In this document: one piece after another, positions 3,741 through 37,100 of the stretch
How the letters are laid out: every line of letters begins with the position of its first letter
Numbering within the stretch: position 1 is the first letter of the stretch
IMG/VR virus record: IMGVR_UViG_3300027705_000005
Span: 36,536 to 100,535 of that record
DNA length: 64,000 nt
Source of the DNA: a virus
Taxonomy: Duplodnaviria > Caudoviricetes
Reading direction: 5' to 3' (one strand)
Translations under genes and position numbers: made by a program
The notes under the pieces: generated by a model
Database searches by the model: none
Seen by the model: only the letters and a program-made list of their open reading frames with translations
Told to the model about the DNA's origin: nothing

Positions 3741-4420
3741 TGGAAAAGCAACAAGTGTGGCTGAGTAGTGATTTCCATGGGTATCACAAAAATATTTGTA
3801 AAGGTTCATCTTCTTGGGATAGTAATAGAAATGATAATAATGGTCAATCTTGTAGAGATTTCAAAGATGAATTTGAAATGACAGATGTGTTAATTGATAC
3901 AATTAATAAATATGTTAAAGAAAATGATATTATATATTTTCTGGGAGATTTTACCTTCGGAGGCTTAGATAAAATATATAAATTTAGAAAGAGAATAAAC
4001 TGTAGAACAATACATTTCTTCTATGGCAACCATGACCATCACATTGAAAATAATAGATTTATATTAGATGATAATGGAGATAAGATACAAATAGATAATC
4101 ATGGAAATTTCTTAAGAACTCAAGATCTTTTTGCATCTGTTCAATATGTTGGAGAAATTAAAGTAAATGGAATTACTGTGTTTTGTTCGCACTATGCTCA
4201 TAGATGTTGGAACAAGTCTCACAAAGGCAGACCACATGCATATGGACATTCACATAATTCATTAGAATATGAAGAATGGGGCAAGAGCCTTGACGTAGGA
4301 ATTGATTCTGCTTTTGCTAGATTTGGAGAATATAGACCATTTAATTTTAATGAATTTATGGAAATTGTAAACAAGAGAGATGTTAAAATTATAGATCATC
4401 ATCAGTCACATACAAACTAA
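3740..4420 (+). CDS. Calcineurin-like metallophosphoesterase
   Basis: SDFHGYH, LGDF, GNHD, SHY, GHSH motifs; coupled to the kinase. Confidence 0.9.
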   Translation: MEKQQVWLSSDFHGYHKNICKGSSSWDSNRNDNNGQSCRDFKDEFEMTDVLIDTINKYVKENDIIYFLGDFTFGGLDKIYKFRKRINCRTIHFFYGNHDHHIENNRFILDDNGDKIQIDNHGNFLRTQDLFASVQYVGEIKVNGITVFCSHYAHRCWNKSHKGRPHAYGHSHNSLEYEEWGKSLDVGIDSAFARFGEYRPFNFNEFMEIVNKRDVKIIDHHQSHTN

Positions 4421-4425
4421 ACAAT

Positions 4426-5709
4426 ATGAAAGAATTTAAAGATATAAATGGTAATGAATTAGTAGATGGTAAATGGTATTGTGGAATAGCTGGAATTGAA
4501 TTTACTAAATTTAAAAAGTTAAATTCAGAAGGTACTAATATTCATTTTTATGAATACATAACAAATGGTAGGCATGATAATGGTGATAGTGATAGACATG
4601 GTTCATTTTATGGTACTTTTGATAAAATGTATCCAGCTAACTATGATGATTATTCTAAATATTTACCAGAAGGACATTCTGATTTAAAACCAAAAGAATT
4701 AAAAGATACTTTAAAAGTAGGAACATGGTATTTTCATGGACATTTAGCTCAAGATAAACCAATGTATTTAGGTAAATTTGAAAGAATTGCTGATAAAACA
4801 TTTCATGCATCTGAATATATGTATTATTTAGGAGGAGACATATATTCTGGAATTACATGCAATTTATGGACAACAGGTGGTTGGAGAGAAAATCTAAGAG
4901 AAGCTACTCAAATAGAATTAAATAGATATCTTCCTGAAGGACATAAAGATAGAGATGATAATACTCCTAAATCTAAATTTAAGGTAGGAGATATTGTAGA
5001 TTTAAATGGTGCTTATATGCTCTCTGGTGGAGGAACATCAGAAAGTTATCCTTTAGAAAATGTTTTTGATTTAAAATGTTTAGCTAGAAGTAAAAAAGCT
5101 AAAATACGTAAAGTCTTTTACAATAAAGAACATCAAAGATATTGGTATGATACTGATTATTGCGGTAATCATGTATTAGAAGGACCTGAAATTACACTAC
5201 ATGGAGAAGTTGTTGCATCAGGAACTTTACCAGAATTAACAGAAGATAATATAAGAGATTATCATGGTTATGAAATAGAGTTTGAATATCTTACGAAATA
5301 TACTGGAAAATTAAGTATTGAACAAGGAAGAATATTTCTTTTAGAAAATGAACATGGACATAATAATGGACATAAATTATTTAGAGATGAATATAAATAT
5401 AGTGTTGTACTTGATATATCAAATAGTAATATCAAACAACATAAGATTAAATTAATCAAATTTGATAAATTTATTCCTTCTTATTATACACCAACACCTA
5501 AATTATATTCTGCAATAAAAGATGAAGAGATTAGATTACACAAAGTACCTAATTCAAACATACAGATAAGAACAATTAACATACCAACAGTTGAAATACA
5601 AAGAGTTGATTTAAAACAACAAAATCAATTAAGAATACAAATACCAGAGGTTAAACCTCAAAGCATCCAAAGAGTAATAATTAATAACAAACATTTAAAA
5701 TTAAATTAA
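4426..5709 (+). CDS. Hypothetical protein with two internal repeats
   Basis: Duplicated G.WY...YLPEGH.D units. Confidence 0.75.
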   Translation: MKEFKDINGNELVDGKWYCGIAGIEFTKFKKLNSEGTNIHFYEYITNGRHDNGDSDRHGSFYGTFDKMYPANYDDYSKYLPEGHSDLKPKELKDTLKVGTWYFHGHLAQDKPMYLGKFERIADKTFHASEYMYYLGGDIYSGITCNLWTTGGWRENLREATQIELNRYLPEGHKDRDDNTPKSKFKVGDIVDLNGAYMLSGGGTSESYPLENVFDLKCLARSKKAKIRKVFYNKEHQRYWYDTDYCGNHVLEGPEITLHGEVVASGTLPELTEDNIRDYHGYEIEFEYLTKYTGKLSIEQGRIFLLENEHGHNNGHKLFRDEYKYSVVLDISNSNIKQHKIKLIKFDKFIPSYYTPTPKLYSAIKDEEIRLHKVPNSNIQIRTINIPTVEIQRVDLKQQNQLRIQIPEVKPQSIQRVIINNKHLKLN

Positions 5710-6089: not shown

Positions 6090-6116
6090 AAACTTGTTTT
6101 TTATGTTAATAATTGT

Positions 6117-6150
6117 AGAAAGGATACTGTAACAGGTATCCTTTCTTTTT
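6117..6150 (+). terminator. Rho-independent terminator
   Basis: AGAAAGGATAC-tgtaacag-GTATCCTTTCT stem-loop plus TTTT. Confidence 0.85.
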
Positions 6151-6164
6151 AAAAAGAAAATATT

Positions 6165-6380
6165 ATGAATGATAGACATATTTATGAAGGTTGGAAAATT
6201 TCAGATTTTATTGAAGCATTAGAACCACAGTTCAATATGATAAATCAAAACTCCAGTTGGCAGAAAGGATTTGAATCATATGATGATTTAAAGAAATGGT
6301 GTAAGGATAACCAACCTTATTATAAGAAACATATACCAGAAGTATATAACTATTTTAAGAAGAAAGTAAAGTTATTATGA
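6165..6380 (+). CDS. Hypothetical protein
   Basis: 71-aa ORF, ATGA-coupled to the next gene. Confidence 0.7.
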   Translation: MNDRHIYEGWKISDFIEALEPQFNMINQNSSWQKGFESYDDLKKWCKDNQPYYKKHIPEVYNYFKKKVKLL

Positions 6381-7099
6381 GTTATAAAACATACCTTACA
6401 GGAGGTGCGGTAAGGGATCAATTACTAGGATTAAAGTCTAAAGACTTAGATTATGTATTTGTTTTTGATAATCCCAAACAGTTTACATCAGCAGAAGAAG
6501 CATTTCAAGAAATGGAAAGAATAATAATAGCTGATGGAGGAGAGATATATTTATCAACTCCAGATTGTTATACTATTAGATATAAAGATGGTGTTACAGG
6601 AGAAGCTAAAGATGTAGTACTTGCAAGAAAAGAAACTTCTTATATTCCAGGTACAAGAAAACCAGTTGTAGAACTTGGTACATTGTGGGATGATATGAGC
6701 AGGAGAGATGCAACTTTAAATGCTTTAGCTATGGATTCAGAAGGTAATATTATAGATTATTTTGGTGGACAAGAAGATCTTAAATATGGTATTATGAAAA
6801 CTCCTCTTGATCCAAATATAACATTTTCAGACGATAATCTAAGATTGCTAAGGTTTTTTAGATTTTTTATTACAAAGAATTTTAGAACAACTGATGAAAT
6901 ATTAGATATTATTACTAACTTTGACTATGTAAACAACTTTAAGCATGTTTCAGAAGAAAGAATAAGGGAAGAATTATTTAAATGTTTTAGACATGATACT
7001 TATAAAACATTAACATTATTGGCTTCTTTTCCTAAATTAGAAAATTATATATTTACTAAAACAAACCTTTGGTTAATGCCAACATTAAAAGATAAATAA
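6377..7099 (+). CDS. Class II tRNA nucleotidyltransferase (CCA-adding/poly(A) polymerase family), compact
   Basis: GGAVRD...KDLDY, ARKE, RRDATLNALA, DDNLRLLRFFRF, VSEERIREEL motifs. Confidence 0.9.
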   Translation: MSYKTYLTGGAVRDQLLGLKSKDLDYVFVFDNPKQFTSAEEAFQEMERIIIADGGEIYLSTPDCYTIRYKDGVTGEAKDVVLARKETSYIPGTRKPVVELGTLWDDMSRRDATLNALAMDSEGNIIDYFGGQEDLKYGIMKTPLDPNITFSDDNLRLLRFFRFFITKNFRTTDEILDIITNFDYVNNFKHVSEERIREELFKCFRHDTYKTLTLLASFPKLENYIFTKTNLWLMPTLKDK

Positions 7100-7357
7100 A
7101 TGCAAGAAACAGAAGAAATAGAACATGTAGAATTACCAGTAGAAGACTTAAAACCTCCTACAAGAAAAGAAGTAAATGATACTAATAAGTTTAGTAGAAT
7201 GCACTTTAGAGTAAGTAATTATCTATATTTAAACCAAAGATCCTTTCAAGAAGAATATATATTAATATATAATAAAGAAAGTAAATTATCAAGAGTAGAA
7301 AGAGATTATGTAATACATGTAGTTGAACAATCAATGCAGTTAAATGAGGAAGAATGA
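7100..7357 (+). CDS. Hypothetical protein
   Basis: 85-aa ORF in a coupled operon. Confidence 0.65.
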   Translation: MQETEEIEHVELPVEDLKPPTRKEVNDTNKFSRMHFRVSNYLYLNQRSFQEEYILIYNKESKLSRVERDYVIHVVEQSMQLNEEE

Positions 7358-7662
7358 GTTTAGAAGAGTTTTTAAATGGTCTTGAAGTACAAACTTTAAC
7401 CGATGAATTAAAAGAAGAAATATTAGACTATCATAATGATGATTTAGCAGATAAGAAAACAGATTTAGATGATGTAAATTATGAAGTAATAATAGAACAT
7501 ATTATATACAGATATGATAATAAATTACATCTTTATCAAACTGAATTATTAGAGTTGGTAGCAGAATCATATAAAGATTTAGCAAGTAAACAGAAATTTG
7601 AATTTTTAATAACTAAAATAGATGATTATACTTTAGAACAATTAAAAGAAAGATTAGAATGA
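7354..7662 (+). CDS. Hypothetical acidic protein
   Basis: 102-aa ORF with ATGA overlaps at both ends. Confidence 0.65.
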   Translation: MSLEEFLNGLEVQTLTDELKEEILDYHNDDLADKKTDLDDVNYEVIIEHIIYRYDNKLHLYQTELLELVAESYKDLASKQKFEFLITKIDDYTLEQLKERLE

Positions 7663-7931
7663 GTAGAAAATATATAGATGCTAAAACAACTGTCTGGGAA
7701 AGAATATATCTTAAAGATGATGCAGATATGGATATTATTATCAAACAAATAGAAGAAGGTAATATAGAAGATGGTTTTGATGAAAAATATTTTGATGAAT
7801 GTGAAGCATTATATGAAACATCTGAATATATGACAATTGAAGAAAATGCTGGTAATAATACAATAGAAGTGTATGTAGATGATAAATGTATTTGGGATAA
7901 TGTTGATAAACATGAAACAATTGTAGGATGA
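7659..7931 (+). CDS. Hypothetical acidic protein
   Basis: 90-aa ORF with ATGA overlaps. Confidence 0.65.
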   Translation: MSRKYIDAKTTVWERIYLKDDADMDIIIKQIEEGNIEDGFDEKYFDECEALYETSEYMTIEENAGNNTIEVYVDDKCIWDNVDKHETIVG

Positions 7932-7978
7932 TACCTTTATTAAGAACATTAAAAGGAAGCCAGGTTTTGTTTTATTAA
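7928..7978 (+). pseudogene. Orphaned ancestral 5' end of the 8717-9793 nucleotidyltransferase (MIPLLRTLKGSQVLFY*)
   Basis: ATGA-coupled to the upstream gene; 8 of the first 13 residues match MEILLKTLKGSNV at 8717 without gaps. Confidence 0.75.
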
Positions 7979-7997
7979 AATAATTTTGTATCTTTAC
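7967..7997 (+). promoter_or_regulatory. Bacteroidota-type housekeeping sigma promoter in front of the HNH gene
   Basis: TTG (7967-7969), 19-nt spacer, TATCTTTAC (7989-7997); consensus TTG-N19-TAnnTTTG with one mismatch. Confidence 0.7.
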
Positions 7998-8010
7998 ACA
8001 AAAAAATAAT

Positions 8011-8751
8011 ATGTGTGAAAGAAAAGAATACAAAATTGTAGATACTATTGGTGTAACAAGAGTTAAAAAACCAAGTGGTAAGTATCATCATGTTCAATTA
8101 TTTATATTTATGTGTCCTATTTGTAGAAATGTTACAAAAAGTAGGTCTTTTAGCAAAATATATAAGAAATGTAAAAATTGTTGGTCTACAAATTATTTAA
8201 ATTTAGAATTTGATAATGGATCTAAAGTAATAGAGGTGGATGATGAGCATAGAAAATTTAAAATATTGTGTCATTGTGGAAATACTCATCTAATGCAAAG
8301 AATTAATTTATTTCGTAGAATAAAACATAAAGAAGATATAGTTTGTAAAGAATGTGGTAGAATAAAGACAGATAAATCTCATGCAAAAACTGATTATCCA
8401 ACTTTTGTAAAACGTGTTAGTAGACTTATAAAAGTTGGTGCAACAGTAAGAAAATTAGATTTTAATCTATCGTTAATTGAAATAGAGAAATTAATAAATC
8501 AAGATTGTTTTTATTGTGGAAATAAACCAATTTTATATTTTAATCCAAGACAATATACTACTGAATATAAAAGGAATGGAATTGATAGAATTGACAGTAG
8601 TATTGGATACAATATTAATAATTGTGTGTCTTCATGTAAACTATGTAATTCTATGAAATTAGATAGTAGGCAGAAAGAATTTTTAGAACAAGTAAACAAA
8701 ATATATAAATATCAAAATGGAGATATTATTAAAAACATTAAAGGGAAGTAA
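8011..8751 (+). CDS. HNH-family homing endonuclease with Zn-ribbon N-terminus
   Basis: CFYCG...NGIDRIDSSIGYNINNCVSSCKLCNSMK; multiple CxxC/CxC pairs. Confidence 0.85.
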   Translation: MCERKEYKIVDTIGVTRVKKPSGKYHHVQLFIFMCPICRNVTKSRSFSKIYKKCKNCWSTNYLNLEFDNGSKVIEVDDEHRKFKILCHCGNTHLMQRINLFRRIKHKEDIVCKECGRIKTDKSHAKTDYPTFVKRVSRLIKVGATVRKLDFNLSLIEIEKLINQDCFYCGNKPILYFNPRQYTTEYKRNGIDRIDSSIGYNINNCVSSCKLCNSMKLDSRQKEFLEQVNKIYKYQNGDIIKNIKGK

Positions 8752-9793
8752 TGTATATGGTACAAATATTCCTGGATCAGACGAAGATTACTTTGATCTT
8801 TATAAATATTCATTGGATGATTATTTGGGTTTAAATTACTCTAGTCAAATAGATTTAAATAGTGATCATGTGCAAATGGAAATAGGAAGATATTGCAGTC
8901 TTTTACTTAAGGGCAGTCCAGTACAAATAGAAACTCTATTTACACCAGAAAAGTACTTTCTATTTAAAGATAAGTCTTTAGATATATTATTTGATAATAA
9001 GAAAGAGTTTTTAACTAAGAAATTAAAAGCTCCATATATTGGATTTATACATAGTCAGTTATCAAAGAGCCAGAACATTACCAAAAGATTAGACTGGGAA
9101 TCCCAAGCTGTGGAAAGACTAGATATACTTGACTTTGTTACTGTTCTTGGAAGGAATGGTAAGACTAAAAGATTTAAAGAATTAATGAATGGTAATTCAT
9201 ATTGGGCATTTAATGAATTTGTATCTGATAAAACTAAAGTTCCTTCTTTAACTCATATTACAGAACAACATTTAGGTTTAGCTAAAGGAGATGCTAAAGA
9301 TATTTATTCAGTTTATTATTTACAAGATAGGTCTGGAGGTTTAATAGGTGAAGATTCTAATGATGTTCAATTAAGAAGTATTCCTAAAGATGCTCCTTTT
9401 ATGTTTCATATTGTTTGTAATCTTTCAGCATATAGTCAACATTGTAAGAAATATAGAGAATATACTGATTGGCTCCTTAAAAGAAATCCACAAAGATACC
9501 AAGCAATTAAAGACACTGGTTCTATTGTAGATCTTAAATTCTTTTATCATACTATTAGATTACTTAATACTGCAATAGAAATATTTAGAGATGGTGAATT
9601 AGTAGTAGATAGAAGAGGTAGAGATGCTGATTATTTAATTAAAATCAGAGAAGGGAAAGTATCATTAGAAGAATTAAATGAAAAAGCAGAACAAGGATTA
9701 AAACTAATAGATGAATTATATTTAACAAGTACATTAAAAGAAGAGCCAAATTATGACTTTGTGGATAATTTATGTAAAACATTAAGAAAATGA
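8717..9793 (+). CDS. Pol-beta superfamily nucleotidyltransferase (RlaP/Nuc-transf-like)
   Basis: KGSNVYGTNIPGSDEDY, GSPVQIETLF, DLKFFYHTIRLL, YLIKIREG. Confidence 0.85.
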   Translation: MEILLKTLKGSNVYGTNIPGSDEDYFDLYKYSLDDYLGLNYSSQIDLNSDHVQMEIGRYCSLLLKGSPVQIETLFTPEKYFLFKDKSLDILFDNKKEFLTKKLKAPYIGFIHSQLSKSQNITKRLDWESQAVERLDILDFVTVLGRNGKTKRFKELMNGNSYWAFNEFVSDKTKVPSLTHITEQHLGLAKGDAKDIYSVYYLQDRSGGLIGEDSNDVQLRSIPKDAPFMFHIVCNLSAYSQHCKKYREYTDWLLKRNPQRYQAIKDTGSIVDLKFFYHTIRLLNTAIEIFRDGELVVDRRGRDADYLIKIREGKVSLEELNEKAEQGLKLIDELYLTSTLKEEPNYDFVDNLCKTLRK

Positions 9794-10059
9794 TAAAAGG
9801 ATTAAAAAATACAATAATAGATTTTATAGAATCTGAAGAAGATTTAGAAATATCAGTTCCAAGATTAGCTATTGAAGAATATGAATTAATATTTGCAGAG
9901 CTTGGATATGAATTAAATAATGATGATGATGACACTAGTACTAATGGTTGGCAAGTAGATTTTTGGTATTCTTTTATTAATGGTAATAAAGAAATAACAT
10001 TGTCAGGATCATTATGGCATGGTGATGATTATTCATTATCAAAAGATGAAGATGAATGA
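9790..10059 (+). CDS. Hypothetical acidic protein
   Basis: 89 aa, coupled; TNGWQVDFW motif. Confidence 0.65.
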   Translation: MIKGLKNTIIDFIESEEDLEISVPRLAIEEYELIFAELGYELNNDDDDTSTNGWQVDFWYSFINGNKEITLSGSLWHGDDYSLSKDEDE

Positions 10060-10406
10060 TACAAACATTTGAATTAAATAGTAAAGTAATATTAATATCT
10101 AATATAGATCCATTAATAGAATACTTTGTACTTAAATTTGATAAACCAAATAGTTTATGGCATAGAGTAGGTAATGGTGAAATATCCATTACTACTTTAC
10201 CAGAAGGACAATGGAAAATAATAGATAGATTAAGAAACTTAGATATTTCTACAGATGATAAGTTTCATAAAGTAGAAGCATTTAGAAAGAAAGTAAAAGA
10301 ATTAACTAAATTAATGAATGAACCAACAGTAGAAAATGTAATTAAATTTGAAAATCTACTAATAATGGAAAGATATGACAGAATTACAATTGAATCACCA
10401 AAGTAA
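10056..10406 (+). CDS. Hypothetical protein
   Basis: 116-aa coupled ORF. Confidence 0.6.
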   Translation: MIQTFELNSKVILISNIDPLIEYFVLKFDKPNSLWHRVGNGEISITTLPEGQWKIIDRLRNLDISTDDKFHKVEAFRKKVKELTKLMNEPTVENVIKFENLLIMERYDRITIESPK

Positions 10407-10695
10407 TGTTAAAGAAATCTTAGATAAGATTAATGAATTGAGTGGACAAAAAGCTTTAGAATATCAAAGAGAAGGAAATCCTTTTCATAATTTTGAAGCT
10501 GGAGGTAGACAATCAGGAAAAGATCCATTAGAAGTATTAAATGGATTTAAACTCAAACATGATGTATCCTACAAAGATATATGTAATGATTTTATGACTG
10601 ATAAACCAGTTAATATAGAACAATTAAAAGAGAAAACAGTAGATATTATTATTTATCACATTTTAGCTTATTCATTAATAAAAGAAAACATATAA
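10375..10695 (+). CDS. Nucleotide-modification-associated (DUF1599/Nmad1-like, MazG-fold) protein
   Basis: K..EY....PFHNFE...KH...EKTVDIIIY pattern. Confidence 0.55.
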   Translation: MTELQLNHQSNVKEILDKINELSGQKALEYQREGNPFHNFEAGGRQSGKDPLEVLNGFKLKHDVSYKDICNDFMTDKPVNIEQLKEKTVDIIIYHILAYSLIKENI

Positions 10696-11537
10696 TGAAA
10701 TTAGTTAAAATAGTTGAATTAGTTTTCTTCTGTGATGATGCTAATGGTGAATATGGATTAACACATGAAGAAACTGTAGATGAAGGGTTTAATGCTTTTT
10801 ATAATGGAATCCAACTCTGGCATGACATAGCAGAACATTCACATGAATATACTCATAAATATTTTAAAGGAAAATATGCAATGAATGTTGGAGGAGAAAT
10901 GGCAGCTATGGGAGCAATGTGGTATTATTATTATGTTTTAGGTGTTTATAATAGATTAACTCCACGTTGGTACTCAGCAGAAGATATAACAAGATTAGGA
11001 ACACAAGATTTAGTTCAAGAAGCAATAACATATGGATATTGTAACTTTGGACATGAATTAGAATGTAATATTCCTTATCAAAAACCTTCTGAGGATGCTT
11101 CTTTAGAATACATTATTGAAGAATTTAATTCTAAAGTTAAAACATTTAGATTTGAAAAACATAAATATTCTTCTAAAGAAGAAAATGAGTATGCTAATCA
11201 ATATAAAAGATCTGTAACTAAAAGTAAAATAGCAAGATTACATAGGTATGGTTATAATATGGCTAAAAGATTAGTTCCTGATTGTTGGCAAAATACAGAA
11301 ACAATAATTAATTTTATAACATTCTGGAATGAGTTTTGTAAGAATAATCCAGCAGAAGAATTACAACAATTTTATAAAGGTGTTACTTTTAGAATATATA
11401 AAAATAAAGGAATAATACATTGGACAGCTACTTTAATACCTATTTATAGAAATGATATAAAACAAATTAAATTGAATAAAGAATCAAATACACAAACAAT
11501 GGAAATAATGGATTATTACTTAACAAATGAATATTAA
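10695..11537 (+). CDS. Hypothetical protein with possible metal-binding HDxxEH motif
   Basis: WHDIAEHSHE...GEMAAMG. Confidence 0.65.
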   Translation: MKLVKIVELVFFCDDANGEYGLTHEETVDEGFNAFYNGIQLWHDIAEHSHEYTHKYFKGKYAMNVGGEMAAMGAMWYYYYVLGVYNRLTPRWYSAEDITRLGTQDLVQEAITYGYCNFGHELECNIPYQKPSEDASLEYIIEEFNSKVKTFRFEKHKYSSKEENEYANQYKRSVTKSKIARLHRYGYNMAKRLVPDCWQNTETIINFITFWNEFCKNNPAEELQQFYKGVTFRIYKNKGIIHWTATLIPIYRNDIKQIKLNKESNTQTMEIMDYYLTNEY

Positions 11538-11540
11538 ATT

Positions 11541-12140
11541 ATGATTATATCTTATGAAAAATTTGTAGATGATTTTGAACCTTATACTAATACAATGTCT
11601 GATGATAGGGGATATAATAATACAATGTATGAAACATTTTCTCCAGAAATAGATCATGTTAAAGCACAAAATCCAGAATATATATGGACATTAATTGATG
11701 GAGAAAACAATAACTCCTGGATTATTCCTGGATTTCATTTTGTTAATAGACTTGGTTATTTCATAACCAAAAATCCTTGGACAGATGAAGATCTTTTAGT
11801 TAATGATAATGAGTTAATACCTGTTAATAAATGTCCAGAATTAGGATTTGACTTTATAGAAAAAGTTTTAAGTATTAATAGAATAACAATTAAGGACAAT
11901 TGGATGTTATCTATGAAATTTACTGCTTTCTACATGGCTGAATATGCAGAAGATGATGGATGCATGGCATTCTATATTACAGAAAATGATTTTAAAGCAG
12001 TTTTAACAGAGTATATAGAGGATGTATTAGGATTTGAATCTGATACCTTTGATGACTTATTAGCTGATTATCAAATTAATTATGCAGAAAATACTATTAA
12101 TATTAGGACTATTACTCTTAATCCCTCTTCGGGTAAGTAA
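11541..12140 (+). CDS. Hypothetical protein
   Basis: 199-aa ORF; YIWTLIDG...GFHFVNRLGYFIT block. Confidence 0.65.
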   Translation: MIISYEKFVDDFEPYTNTMSDDRGYNNTMYETFSPEIDHVKAQNPEYIWTLIDGENNNSWIIPGFHFVNRLGYFITKNPWTDEDLLVNDNELIPVNKCPELGFDFIEKVLSINRITIKDNWMLSMKFTAFYMAEYAEDDGCMAFYITENDFKAVLTEYIEDVLGFESDTFDDLLADYQINYAENTINIRTITLNPSSGK

Positions 12141-12498
12141 AAGTAATAAGACAATTATAATAACGGAACCATCAAGAGTTGATATAAAGCTCTTAGCAAG
12201 ATTATTAGAATCTGAATGTTCTATCTGTCCAGTATCAGAGAAAAAGCTTGTAGGAGCTACTGTATTGAATAGAATAGGACATTCAGATTTTCCTGATGAT
12301 CTTAAATCTGTTATTAATCAAAAAAATCAATATTATATTACTGATCAAAAACCAAGTAAAGAATCTTTTATTATTGCAAGAGATTTACTTAACTGTGGTA
12401 AAAGAAATCAAAAAATATTGTATTTTTACAAACCAGGAAATGGATTTAAAAGAAAAAATGTAATGTATAAAACAAAATATCATCACTATGCAACTTAA
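12082..12498 (+). CDS. SleB/Hydrolase_2 cell-wall hydrolase with N-terminal signal or anchor
   Basis: LLARLLESE...VGATVLNR...FPDDLKSVINQKNQY; hydrophobic N-terminus. Confidence 0.85.
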   Translation: MQKILLILGLLLLIPLRVSKSNKTIIITEPSRVDIKLLARLLESECSICPVSEKKLVGATVLNRIGHSDFPDDLKSVINQKNQYYITDQKPSKESFIIARDLLNCGKRNQKILYFYKPGNGFKRKNVMYKTKYHHYAT

Positions 12499-34100: not shown

Positions 34101-37100
34101 ACCAATAGAGAATGGATTATATAATGAGTAAGGAACATACATATCTCTCTTACCTTCAACTTTCATAGCTGTTCCCTTAGGAATATCCAGATTGTTAAAT
34201 AAAACTCCTATAACACCAGCTTTTGGATCAAATAATTCAGCTATTCCATAACCAAAATAATTCTCAGCTATTTTAGAATAATCTTTAGGATTATCTAAGA
34301 TCCACTGCATATCTTCTTCTTTTACATTAACCTTTAATTGATTAAGTAAAGAAGTTAATCTACCAGCAATTGTATCATCATTATTATTTAATTTATAATC
34401 TAAAGCTATATTCTCATAAGCTGATTTAATATCTGCTATCTTATTAGCATTAATTAAAAACTTATGATCTACATCTCCTATAACTAAATTATTATTTTTG
34501 TCATTAACAATATTAAAGAAATCTGATTCCCAGGTTTCTACCATTACCCTACCACCACTATTTCTATCAGCATCTATAAGATTAGCTGAATAAGTACCAT
34601 CTTTAGTATTCCATAATGCTATTTTAGCTGTAGCTTTATATAATTTAAGAACAGTCATAAACTCATTCTTAGCATTATTATCCCAAGTTATAATGTTATC
34701 AGCTATCTGATTTAACATTAATTTATTAGGATTAGATTTATCTCTTAATACTTTTATTGCTTCATCAAAAGTAAGATTAGGTTTATTAGATAATAATCTT
34801 TTAATTGTAATAAAAGCATTTTCTCCATCTACATATTCTGGTAATCCTAAAGTAGTATATTTAGGTACTATTTCTCTACCTGACTTCTGAACCATTTCAA
34901 TAGTAGATAATTTAGATTTTAATCTAAATGAAGCTCTATCATAATCATTCATTTCATAGATAGACTCATCATATCTTTCTCCTTGATGTCCTTGTTCTCC
35001 AGTAGAATCTATTATTTCTGCATCTTCTTGTTGTTCATTAAAAGTAGTTTTATTATTACTTTTAACCCTTAACCCAGAAGCTTGTAATTTAGAATGTATA
35101 AGATCTTTTATCTGATCTATGTATTGAGGCATATTTTTTAATGTCTCGGTTTGTGCATCTTCAATTAAATCTCCTAAGAAGTATTCTTCTACTTGGTTAA
35201 GTATTTTTTCAATAGATTGATTAGGATCAGCATTAAAGGCTTCTAATGCTATATGTGTACCATAAGTAACTAATTGTTCTTGATGATGCCAAGGAATAGC
35301 ATTACCTGAATCATTACTGACTAAAAATTTAGAAGACAAGGCATTAATATCATCAACATCTATTTTGATAGATTGTAATATATTATTATTATCTGTATTA
35401 GTTTTCTTAGGTGTAAACTTCTTTCTTGGTTTTTCTTCTATAGTACTATCTGGATCAGGAACATTTTTTGTTTGAGTGTTATTTAAAGCAAGTAATTCAT
35501 CATCATATTTAGCATTAATTTTATCTTCTAATTTACTAGTAACTTCTTCTGTTTTATAGGGAATTTTATTATCTATATTTAAATCTTCAAGAGCATCCCC
35601 AGCATTAGTATTACTTTCAGTAAAGACAAAAGATTTATTGCCTGCCCTATATGTAGTAGCTGTAATATCATTTCCGTTATTATCTATATAATACTCTTTT
35701 TTTACGGGAATACTTTTAGCTTTTTTATCTAATTCTGTTTTTAATTTTTCTTGTCTTCTGCTTTCTATATCTTCTACAGTAGAAATATCAGGTTTAACCT
35801 GACTTTCTGTATTTGAAATATTATTTTTAAGTTCAATTAGTTTTTCATTAATTCTTGTTACTGGACTTTTACTACCTTTTTCTTGAGTTGTATGATCTGA
35901 AAATATTAATATTTCTCTTTGTGATAAAGGTTGATTTAATGATACTTTATTAGCGATACTGTTAATAACATTATCAGATACAATACCAGCATCTACAAAA
36001 GCATTATATTGCTCATTAGATATTGGTTCAGATACATTTTCTACAGGTTGATCTTCTACTTCAACAGATTGTGGTTTAACATCAGTAGTTAATTGAGTAT
36101 TGATTTCAAATGTAGCTTGTTCATGAAAAATCCATCTATTTGTATAAGGATCTTTAACATATAATACATCTGTTTCTGTATCTTCAATTATTCTATTTTT
36201 ATTAACTTTAGGTGCTAAACCAATAGTACCATTATTATTAACAATAGTTATCTTAGTATTTTTATCTTTTACATTAAGTCTATAAGAAGTTCTTTGTGCA
36301 TTACCAATATAACTATCTATAATTGCTTTATCGGCATCAGATAATTTACCATCAATTAAATTATCAACAGTAATTAATTTAGTTTCTTGACCTTGTTTTT
36401 TAACAGCTATTTGTCTTTGTTTATTCTTACCAAATCCAACATCTAATTTATTAACTTTATTTTTAATGTCTTGTGCCCAAAAGTCATTCATTTGTGCTAA
36501 AACTTCCTTATCTGTTTTAACATTTTTACTAATATTACCTTCATTTAAAAAATCTTCAAGATATAGATATACTAATTCTTTATCAATTGGTTTTGCAATT
36601 AATTTAACATAAGTGAATTCTGGAGTTTTATTATCAGAACTTTTCATTGGTAATTTAAGAGTAGCTATTTGGTTTTTGTCCTTACCTACCATTACTATTT
36701 CCACATTAGTATCATCAATAAGTTTTTTAGTAGGGATAGGTGGTCCTACTCTTCTTGATACATCACCTGGTTTAACTTCAGTAACCTGACTTGAAGGGTT
36801 TTCAGTGTTTAATATATCTTTTCTAAAATCAAATAATTTAATTAATTGATCAGCAATCTTTTTAAAATCAGATTTTTCTGTACCTTCTTCATCACTTCTA
36901 ATTACTACTCTATTAAATGGTCTTGTATCAAAAGTATCTCCTAAGAATATTTTAATTCTATTTGCTATTTTAGTTTTAGATTCTCCATCCATAATAGCAT
37001 TAACAATCTCTTGTCCTTGTGGAGTAAGTATCATCCATCTATTACCTTCATCAGACTTAGATGGATCTGGAGTAGCAAATAGACCTCTTAAATCAGTATC

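Follow-up and report, generated by a model that had tools for sequence, protein, structure and literature searches.

Homing endonuclease genes that replace one end of their target gene, with no need for splicing, have been described in yeasts and in fungal mitochondria. The WHO elements of Torulaspora and Lachancea yeasts home into FBA1 and replace its 3' end, and allele-specific cleavage was shown for WHO6 (Coughlan et al. 2020, PMC7282813). Fungal mitochondrial mORFs, found in atp6 of Allomyces macrogynus and in atp6, atp9, cox2, and nad3 of Glomus (PMC3630166 and its ref. 48), carry foreign C-termini; in these hybrids, the native relics are 91–98% identical to a close relative, versus 64–81% for the inserted ends (PMC3630166). 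The principle of end-replacing, splicing-free homing is, therefore, already known, but there are few records of it in phages. The phage homing literature describes split genes, co-conversion, and collaborative homing, and no natural case of a relic plus a replacement was found there, although this negative is weak evidence. The locus considered here lies in a 64,000-nucleotide (nt) stretch of phage DNA (hereafter, the window), corresponding to positions 36536–100535 of the linear, 100.5-kb IMG/VR record IMGVR_UViG_3300027705_000005 (CheckV completeness 47). In this window, an HNH endonuclease gene separates a 13-codon relic of a nucleotidyltransferase (NTase) gene from a full-length NTase gene with a divergent beginning. 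The HNH gene and the foreign 5' end of the NTase gene were probably installed together, through homing-type repair of a double-strand break from a diverged donor phage.

The NTase gene now in use (8717–9793, plus strand) encodes 358 amino acids (aa) and belongs to the PF10127 (RlaP) family, with 30.7 bits for a curated cut-off of 23, and to PHROG 388 (E=7e-46). This chimeric gene has every appearance of a working one: its protein aligns from Met1 with 24 full-length relatives, and all invariant family residues are kept, including G10, S11, Y14, G15, T16, S21, D22, and D24. An initial annotation, made from the letters of the window, viewed the gene as split by the HNH gene. This view had to be given up, as was the idea of a gene in pieces: the downstream open reading frame (ORF) is full length, and the residues of the upstream 13-codon stub are duplicated in it, so that the stub is redundant. 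In the known genes-in-pieces, such as mobE in nrdA of Aeromonas phage Aeh1 and mobA in T4 gene 39/60 (PMC2988022, Friedrich et al. 2007), a free-standing HNH gene likewise lies inside a coding region without any splicing, but both halves are needed, and two polypeptides assemble. Identity of the NTase homologues declines gradually from 93% to 27%, and all of them start with M-x-x-L-L-(R/K)-T-x-K-G-S-x-V-Y-G. None begins with MEILLK, HNH-less relatives included, in line with what the initial annotation expected.

The beginning of the gene differs sharply from the remainder. Its first 58 codons (8717–8890, plus strand), which provide the start and the GS..YG..D.D catalytic motif, and whose first 35 nt overlap the 3' end of the HNH gene, appear to be foreign. 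Compared with contig L019, which lacks the HNH gene, successive segments of 8717–8890 share 72%, 71%, 74%, and 62% of their nt; beyond 8890, identity rises to 85% (8891–8950), 96% (8951–9050), and 100% (9051–9124). Compared with another HNH-less contig, L002, the window is ~73% identical over 8726–8889 and 100% identical from ~8890 to 9447. The right-hand recombination boundary, as drawn from the identity to both contigs, is thus graded (8880–8950). The same step is found in the protein, for which identity to P0002, encoded by the L002 allele, amounts to 65.5% for residues 1–58, 100% for residues 59–136, and 97.3% for the remainder. Residues 1–58 are about equally far (59–66%) from all close relatives. 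What the initial annotation described as a recoded replacement start of 13 codons is, instead, a foreign allele of ~58 codons. Further downstream in the gene, identity to L002 is complete on either side of a short divergent patch (9448–9492, ~78–83%), which resembles another conversion tract of small size.

On the left side, the flank is resident. A 90-aa ORF with no assigned function (7659–7931, plus strand) is 94.1% identical to its L019 counterpart at the nt level, and the upstream flank as a whole 94–97% identical. Its TGA overlaps the ATG of the next reading frame as ATGA, a coupling that the initial annotation had rightly pointed out. This next frame starts with the relic of the resident NTase 5' end (7928–7968, plus strand; codons 1–13 and one base), which was recognized from its match to L019 and with a position-specific scoring matrix (PSSM). 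Of the 40 nt at 7928–7967, 39 are identical to the start of the intact NTase gene of L019 (4270–4309). The similarity stops between the Val13 and Tyr14 codons, inside the GSxVYG motif, as had also been noticed at the outset. The junction is abrupt, identity to L019 falling from 97.5% to 16% (background) at 7968/7969. A tandem GTTTT GTTTT occupies this junction (7964–7973), in place of GGTTTAT in the empty allele, and might represent microhomology or a trace of the repair.

The relic opens a mini-ORF of 16 codons (7928–7978, plus strand), composed of MIPLLRTLKGSQV followed by LFY and a stop (in full, MIPLLRTLKGSQVLFY and stop), the last three codons and the stop of which derive from the left end of the cassette. 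It is probably translated, without function. Its resemblance to the working NTase N-terminus, on which the initial annotation was based, stands, although the count has to be corrected to 9 of 13 residues (rather than 8 of 13), with 27 of 39 nt. For the PSSM, the first 13 residues of the 24 relatives were used, the window's own protein being left out, and all stop-free 13-mers in the six frames of the 64-kb window were scored. The mini-ORF came first of 54,013 (36.0 bits) and the working N-terminus second (23.5 bits), the best unrelated peptide reaching 8.6 bits. The relic thus fits the family better than the start now in use does, and it is also closer to the relatives in nt (39/40 identical to L019, versus 28/39 for the working start). 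Beyond it, the left end of the foreign cassette is a spacer of 42 nt (7969–8010, plus strand), with one TAATTTTG at 7981–7988; this spacer is similar to no relative, has no second copy in the window, and gave no match in IMG/VR. Because identity steps at both ends, the whole of 7969–~8890 (spacer, HNH gene, and foreign codons 1–58) is considered as imported. Judging from these comparisons, resident codons 14–58 would have been lost, and codons 1–13 kept as the relic.

The allele without the HNH gene was retrieved by a protein-cluster search with the 90-aa ORF, which yielded the 91%-identical protein P0100, on contigs L019–L021 (Logan and NCBI metagenome assemblies); the same query found no match in IMG/VR. 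On these contigs, the gene order is 102 aa, 90 aa, and NTase, with no HNH gene; the ATGA at the end of the 90-aa ORF leads into an intact NTase gene that starts with MIPLLRTLKGSKVYG. This gene reads MIPLLRTLKGSKVYGTIVPTSDDDYF at its beginning, after which an ordinary NTase sequence extends as far as the contig does. The contiguous gene that the initial annotation predicted for HNH-less relatives thus exists, behind the same upstream ORF, with a start that is one residue off the prediction. A second HNH-less allele is carried by L002–L008 (protein P0002), in which an 82-aa ORF is ATGA-coupled to the NTase gene. L019 cannot have arisen from the window allele through a deletion between the repeats, since its codons 14–58 are family-typical and not window-like. 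The HNH gene itself is found in the window and in L009–L011, and is missing from L002–L008 and L019–L021, with flanks that are 94–100% identical. Contigs L002–L011 and L019–L021 come from metagenomes of wastewater and gut. The HNH-bearing arrangement is the same in at least 24 independent contigs from several sources (ENA, JGI, and Logan), and is, therefore, no assembly artefact.

The HNH gene (8011–8751, plus strand) is free-standing and encodes a 246-aa protein, assigned to the PacI-like beta-beta-alpha-metal endonucleases by tblastn, PHROG families, and a family profile compared with the PDB. The tblastn matches are phage HNH endonucleases (e.g., that of crAss-like cr50_1, 33% identical over residues 5–234), and the PHROG matches are the 'endonuclease VII' and 'HNH endonuclease' families (E=2.7e-14); no Pfam model scored above threshold for this protein. 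A profile of 15 homologues matches PacI (PDB 3ldy) at E=1.1e-6, with CxxC ... NGIDRxDS..GY...N...CxxCN..K aligned, and the 18 positions that are invariant among the 15 aligned homologues are all kept in the window. PacI (PDB 3ldy/3m7k) has the same core, CxxC ... G-(I/V)-D-R-x-D-S-x-x-G-Y ... N ... CxxCN..K, but it is a restriction enzyme of 142 aa, to which the HNH protein adds a Cys-rich N-terminal region of ~130 aa and a homing-type context. The protein is thus made of a Cys-rich, zinc-finger-like N-terminal half and a nuclease core at residues ~164–218. Residues 1–130 (8011–8400) contain many CxxC pairs and match PRDM9 zinc fingers weakly and repeatedly (E ~1e-4), and the homologues have a KCxCDCG ... 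KSCGC module in common in this half. The N-terminal half is probably the DNA-recognition part.

The 3' end of the HNH gene and the 5' end of the NTase gene overlap by 35 nt in different frames, so that, as the initial annotation stated, the former also encodes the new NTase N-terminus. This is an ordinary gene end read in two frames, since the HNH homologues likewise end 10–25 residues past a conserved IY. Presence/absence polymorphism, an intact predicted nuclease, and a divergent flank that appears to be co-converted are marks of a homing gene, and the HNH gene bears all three as far as its sequence tells. The Seg and Mob genes of T4, which move by intronless homing (PMC2988022), are comparable in that the endonuclease gene adjoins conserved genes or lies between them, varies in presence among close relatives, and has co-converted flanks. 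In the classical cases, nevertheless, homology extends to both sides, and no duplicated gene fragment remains.

Compared with the WHO elements, the locus shares an endonuclease gene adjoining its target, the exchange of one gene end for a divergent version from the donor (resistant in the WHO elements and presumably so here) that strands the old end, the lack of splicing, and a chimeric target gene with a sharp change of divergence at a fixed point. The differences lie in the replaced end (5' here, 3' in the WHO elements), in the nuclease (a PacI-like HNH here, an intein-derived LAGLIDADG/zinc-finger protein there), and in the setting: a phage with a single relic and predicted cleavage, as opposed to a meiotic diploid with clusters of relics and demonstrated cleavage. 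The mORFs likewise combine a free-standing endonuclease ORF with a foreign terminal segment, leave the native end as a relic, and show a similar contrast of identities (here, 97.5% versus ~70–72%). However, their foreign segment is C-terminal, their nucleases are LAGLIDADG or GIY-YIG, and some of their ORFs are fused in frame to the host gene; in the window, the segment is N-terminal, and the HNH gene has its own start and lies in another frame, with the 35-nt overlap with the new start. Of the features by which an end-replacing element can be recognized, a full-length target with a foreign terminal segment, a stranded native fragment beyond the endonuclease gene, and a closer match of this fragment than of the working end to the relatives' gene are found here, and several relics, or several backgrounds with relics of their own, are not. 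As to splicing, the absence proposed by the initial annotation is borne out, with neither an Rfam intron nor an intein; such a strategy has precedents in the WHO elements (PMC7282813) and mORF hybrids (PMC3630166). What is new is the mirror polarity (replacement of the 5' end), together with a nuclease of the PacI-like HNH type and the occurrence in a phage.

The proposed origin builds on what is directly established: the HNH gene is present in some alleles and absent from others, the left junction is known exactly and the right one is graded, and both the nuclease motif and the NTase are intact. In the donor, a diverged and unsampled phage, the HNH gene would have stood directly upstream of the donor's own NTase start and overlapped it. 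After a break in the 5' region of the resident NTase gene, the right end would have invaded the diverged donor NTase gene. Repair on this side would have been homologous and resolved ~174 nt into the gene, in a highly conserved stretch coding for GRY..LLLKGSPVQIE, so that the donor's first ~58 codons would have been co-converted. On the left, where the variable upstream genes gave no homology, the broken end would have been attached by non-homologous joining just before the HNH gene. The outcome would be the present order of relic (codons 1–13), spacer, HNH gene, and an NTase gene whose foreign beginning is joined to a resident remainder, with no need for RNA or protein splicing.

An abrupt left junction together with a graded right one is the footprint expected of one-sided double-strand-break repair. 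Illegitimate repair of this kind was shown experimentally for T4 intron homing with one-sided homology (reviewed in PMC2988022). There, homology on one side suffices, and joining on the other takes place where homology is lacking or limited to microhomology, giving an abrupt and a homologous junction as in the window; the T4 case was an engineered td-intron system, and the present one is a natural free-standing gene. On the left side, pairing with the 41-nt relic, as in the WHO elements, might alternatively operate in later rounds, the recipient's own first 41 nt then becoming the new relic. One-off illegitimate joining and relic-templated pairing are compatible readings, which the data do not separate. 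We infer that this HNH protein made the break, that it would cut HNH-less alleles between about nt 41 and 174 of the NTase ORF (the best bound), and that the imported 5' end would be immune to it. The silent GTT to GTA change at Val13 was considered as a mark of immunity, and rejected as not diagnostic: the HNH-less L023 and L025 also have GTA.

Several points weigh against this origin. The nuclease activity of the HNH protein and its target are predicted. The foreign origin of the cassette is deduced from divergence, because the searches found no donor with the HNH gene or a MEILLK-type NTase. For the HNH protein, nothing above 42% identity was found outside its own cluster among 5.8 billion proteins, and a 42% partial match was the most that IMG/VR offered; the foreign 58-aa N-terminus had no match in IMG/VR or JGI metagenomes, and a best match of 62% among 1.84 billion cluster representatives. 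Only one HNH-bearing haplotype and one relic were met, and no repeated homing. The history must also involve more than one exchange, since the right flank of the window is L002-like and its left flank L019-like. Furthermore, mosaicism is concentrated at the NTase 5' end in HNH-less relatives as well, so that part of what is observed could stem from ordinary recombination.

This last point leads to the best-surviving alternative, in which the HNH gene is a passenger: an ordinary illegitimate or homologous exchange of modules between mosaic phages would have brought in the spacer, the HNH gene, and the neighbouring NTase start, the nuclease would have played no part, and the relic would be the by-product of a random crossover inside the gene. 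The variability of the region agrees with such an exchange, as the segment between the PolyA_pol-like gene upstream (6377–7099) and the NTase gene differs in nearly every relative, and HNH-less alleles also swap their first 60–240 nt independently of the rest of the gene. A random crossover, however, would have had to fall inside the sequence coding for the conserved catalytic motif and directly beside an intact nuclease gene, and to produce the pair of abrupt and graded junctions expected from one-sided double-strand-break repair; moreover, the other exchanges seen leave no relic. On balance, this explanation is unlikely.

Duplication of the 5' end in place, followed by rapid divergence of one copy and later insertion of the HNH gene between the copies, would account for two direct copies of codons 1–13 with 27 of 39 nt identical. 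It is, nonetheless, very improbable. The working copy is ~30% diverged over 174 nt, yet no difference from L002 occurs in the 560 nt that follow, and the change in identity is step-like; moreover, the copy that stayed 39/40 identical to L019 is the relic, i.e., the one not under selection.

A self-splicing group I or II intron with an HNH ORF, spanning 7969–~8756, with the relic as exon 1 spliced to ...YGTNIPGSD, deserves still less credence. HNH ORFs do occur in phage group I introns, and the relic shares its frame with the NTase ORF; joining 7968 to 8757 would restore an in-frame ...GSQVYGT.... Nevertheless, no Rfam family matches 7600–9100 even at E≤10, and only 42 nt of the interval are non-coding, which is too little for a ribozyme core. 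No G precedes the would-be 3' splice site, and at the end of the interval codons 1–13 are repeated in full, ATG included, for which an intron has no need. An intein, or read-through, was discarded as well, the HNH gene being in another frame with its own ATG, and 23 stops interrupting the frame of the relic between 7928 and 8716. Chance resemblance between the mini-ORF and the NTase N-terminus, conceivable for a match of 13 residues in an AT-rich genome, is refuted by the first rank of 54,013 (36 versus 8.6 bits for the best unrelated peptide) and by the 39/40 nt shared with an intact start in the same context, and its likelihood is negligible.

Under the proposed homing origin, the relic may be more than debris. 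It is a tentative and rather doubtful idea that the relic, the HNH gene, and the resistant 5' end form together a self-contained, WHO-like homing unit in phages, with the relic as a working part. If so, the 41-nt relic would serve as a left homology arm and allow homing into NTase alleles irrespective of their upstream genes. With every round, the first ~60–240 nt of the target would be overwritten, which would explain the independent exchange of this 5' end as a module in the gene family. Mosaicism at the 5' end of HNH-less alleles is, at most, suggestive of repeated homing.

If homing installed the cassette, the end-replacing strategy extends, in mirror image, to uncultured crAss-like-related phages, and the locus shows how homing genes can cross between phages with unrelated neighbouring genes. 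Because filled and empty alleles are both known at near-identical sequence, the HNH target and the immunity of the 5' end are directly testable. For annotation, the short coupled ORF is to be read as a gene relic, and codons 1–58 of the NTase gene as differing in history from the remainder.

The initial annotation also attributed a host-type promoter to the cassette, which was not upheld. The TAATTTTG match in the spacer ends 22 nt before the HNH start, and the nearest TTTG lies only 11 nt upstream of it. In the Bacteroidota promoter consensus, the spacing is ~19–21 nt, and no correctly spaced -33 element accompanies the TAnnTTTG match of the spacer. TAnnTTTG occurs at chance frequency in the window (105 found, 108.5 expected), and a sigma-70 scan is at background (20 found versus 17 expected). 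The simplest reading is that the HNH gene is transcribed by read-through of the operon.

This operon, on the plus strand at 6165–12498, consists of tightly packed genes, nearly all of which overlap by ATGA or a few bases, and its sole internal gap is 7932–8010. Two other gaps of the window, at 1913–1991 and 6090–6164, contain G+C-rich hairpins followed by T runs; they are terminator-like and delimit the tightly coupled operon, and neither has a TAnnTTTG motif. The window, which also includes a 5,498-aa ORF, has no close relative at this locus in the INPHARED phage collection. Its few matches in the public phage collection (for example, of the HNH gene and of a 1,305-aa ORF) include uncultured crAss-like phages from human faeces, and it is, therefore, considered as a distant crAss-like-related phage.

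Among HNH-less NTase genes, the first 60–240 nt are exchanged independently of the remainder. For instance, L001 and L018 are 100% identical from nt ~90 to 850 and 78–85% before, L001 and L002 are 100% identical in the first ~60–90 nt and then 67–90%, and L002 and L019 are 75–87% identical up to nt ~240 and 100% thereafter. The 5' end of the NTase gene is a recombination hot spot. The genes just upstream are variable as well: between the PolyA_pol-like gene and the NTase gene (window 7100–7931), their number and sequence differ in nearly every relative (L001, L002, L013, L014, L018, L023, and L025). The window has 85+102+90 aa, and 85+82, 85 only, 134+89+74, 99+85+102+127, and other sets are found elsewhere, without assigned functions. 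The genes upstream of the NTase gene encode 82, 127, 74, 144, 150, or 85 aa across relatives.

The neighbourhood of the NTase gene is apparently RNA-repair-like. The window contains an RNA ligase gene (602–1912; PHROG 968, E=2e-49), a PolyA_pol/CCA-type head domain (the 6377–7099 gene), and the RlaP NTase. In the relatives, a HAD_PNKP gene (L019, 86–511) and, just downstream of the NTase gene, an ATP-dependent DNA ligase gene (L014, 4245–5288) are added; the window has an 89-aa ORF at the place of this ligase. Finally, a related phage contig, L015, carries a GIY-YIG/NUMOD-type endonuclease gene (4168–4893) a few genes downstream of the NTase gene, which suggests that nucleases of the homing type are common among these phages.

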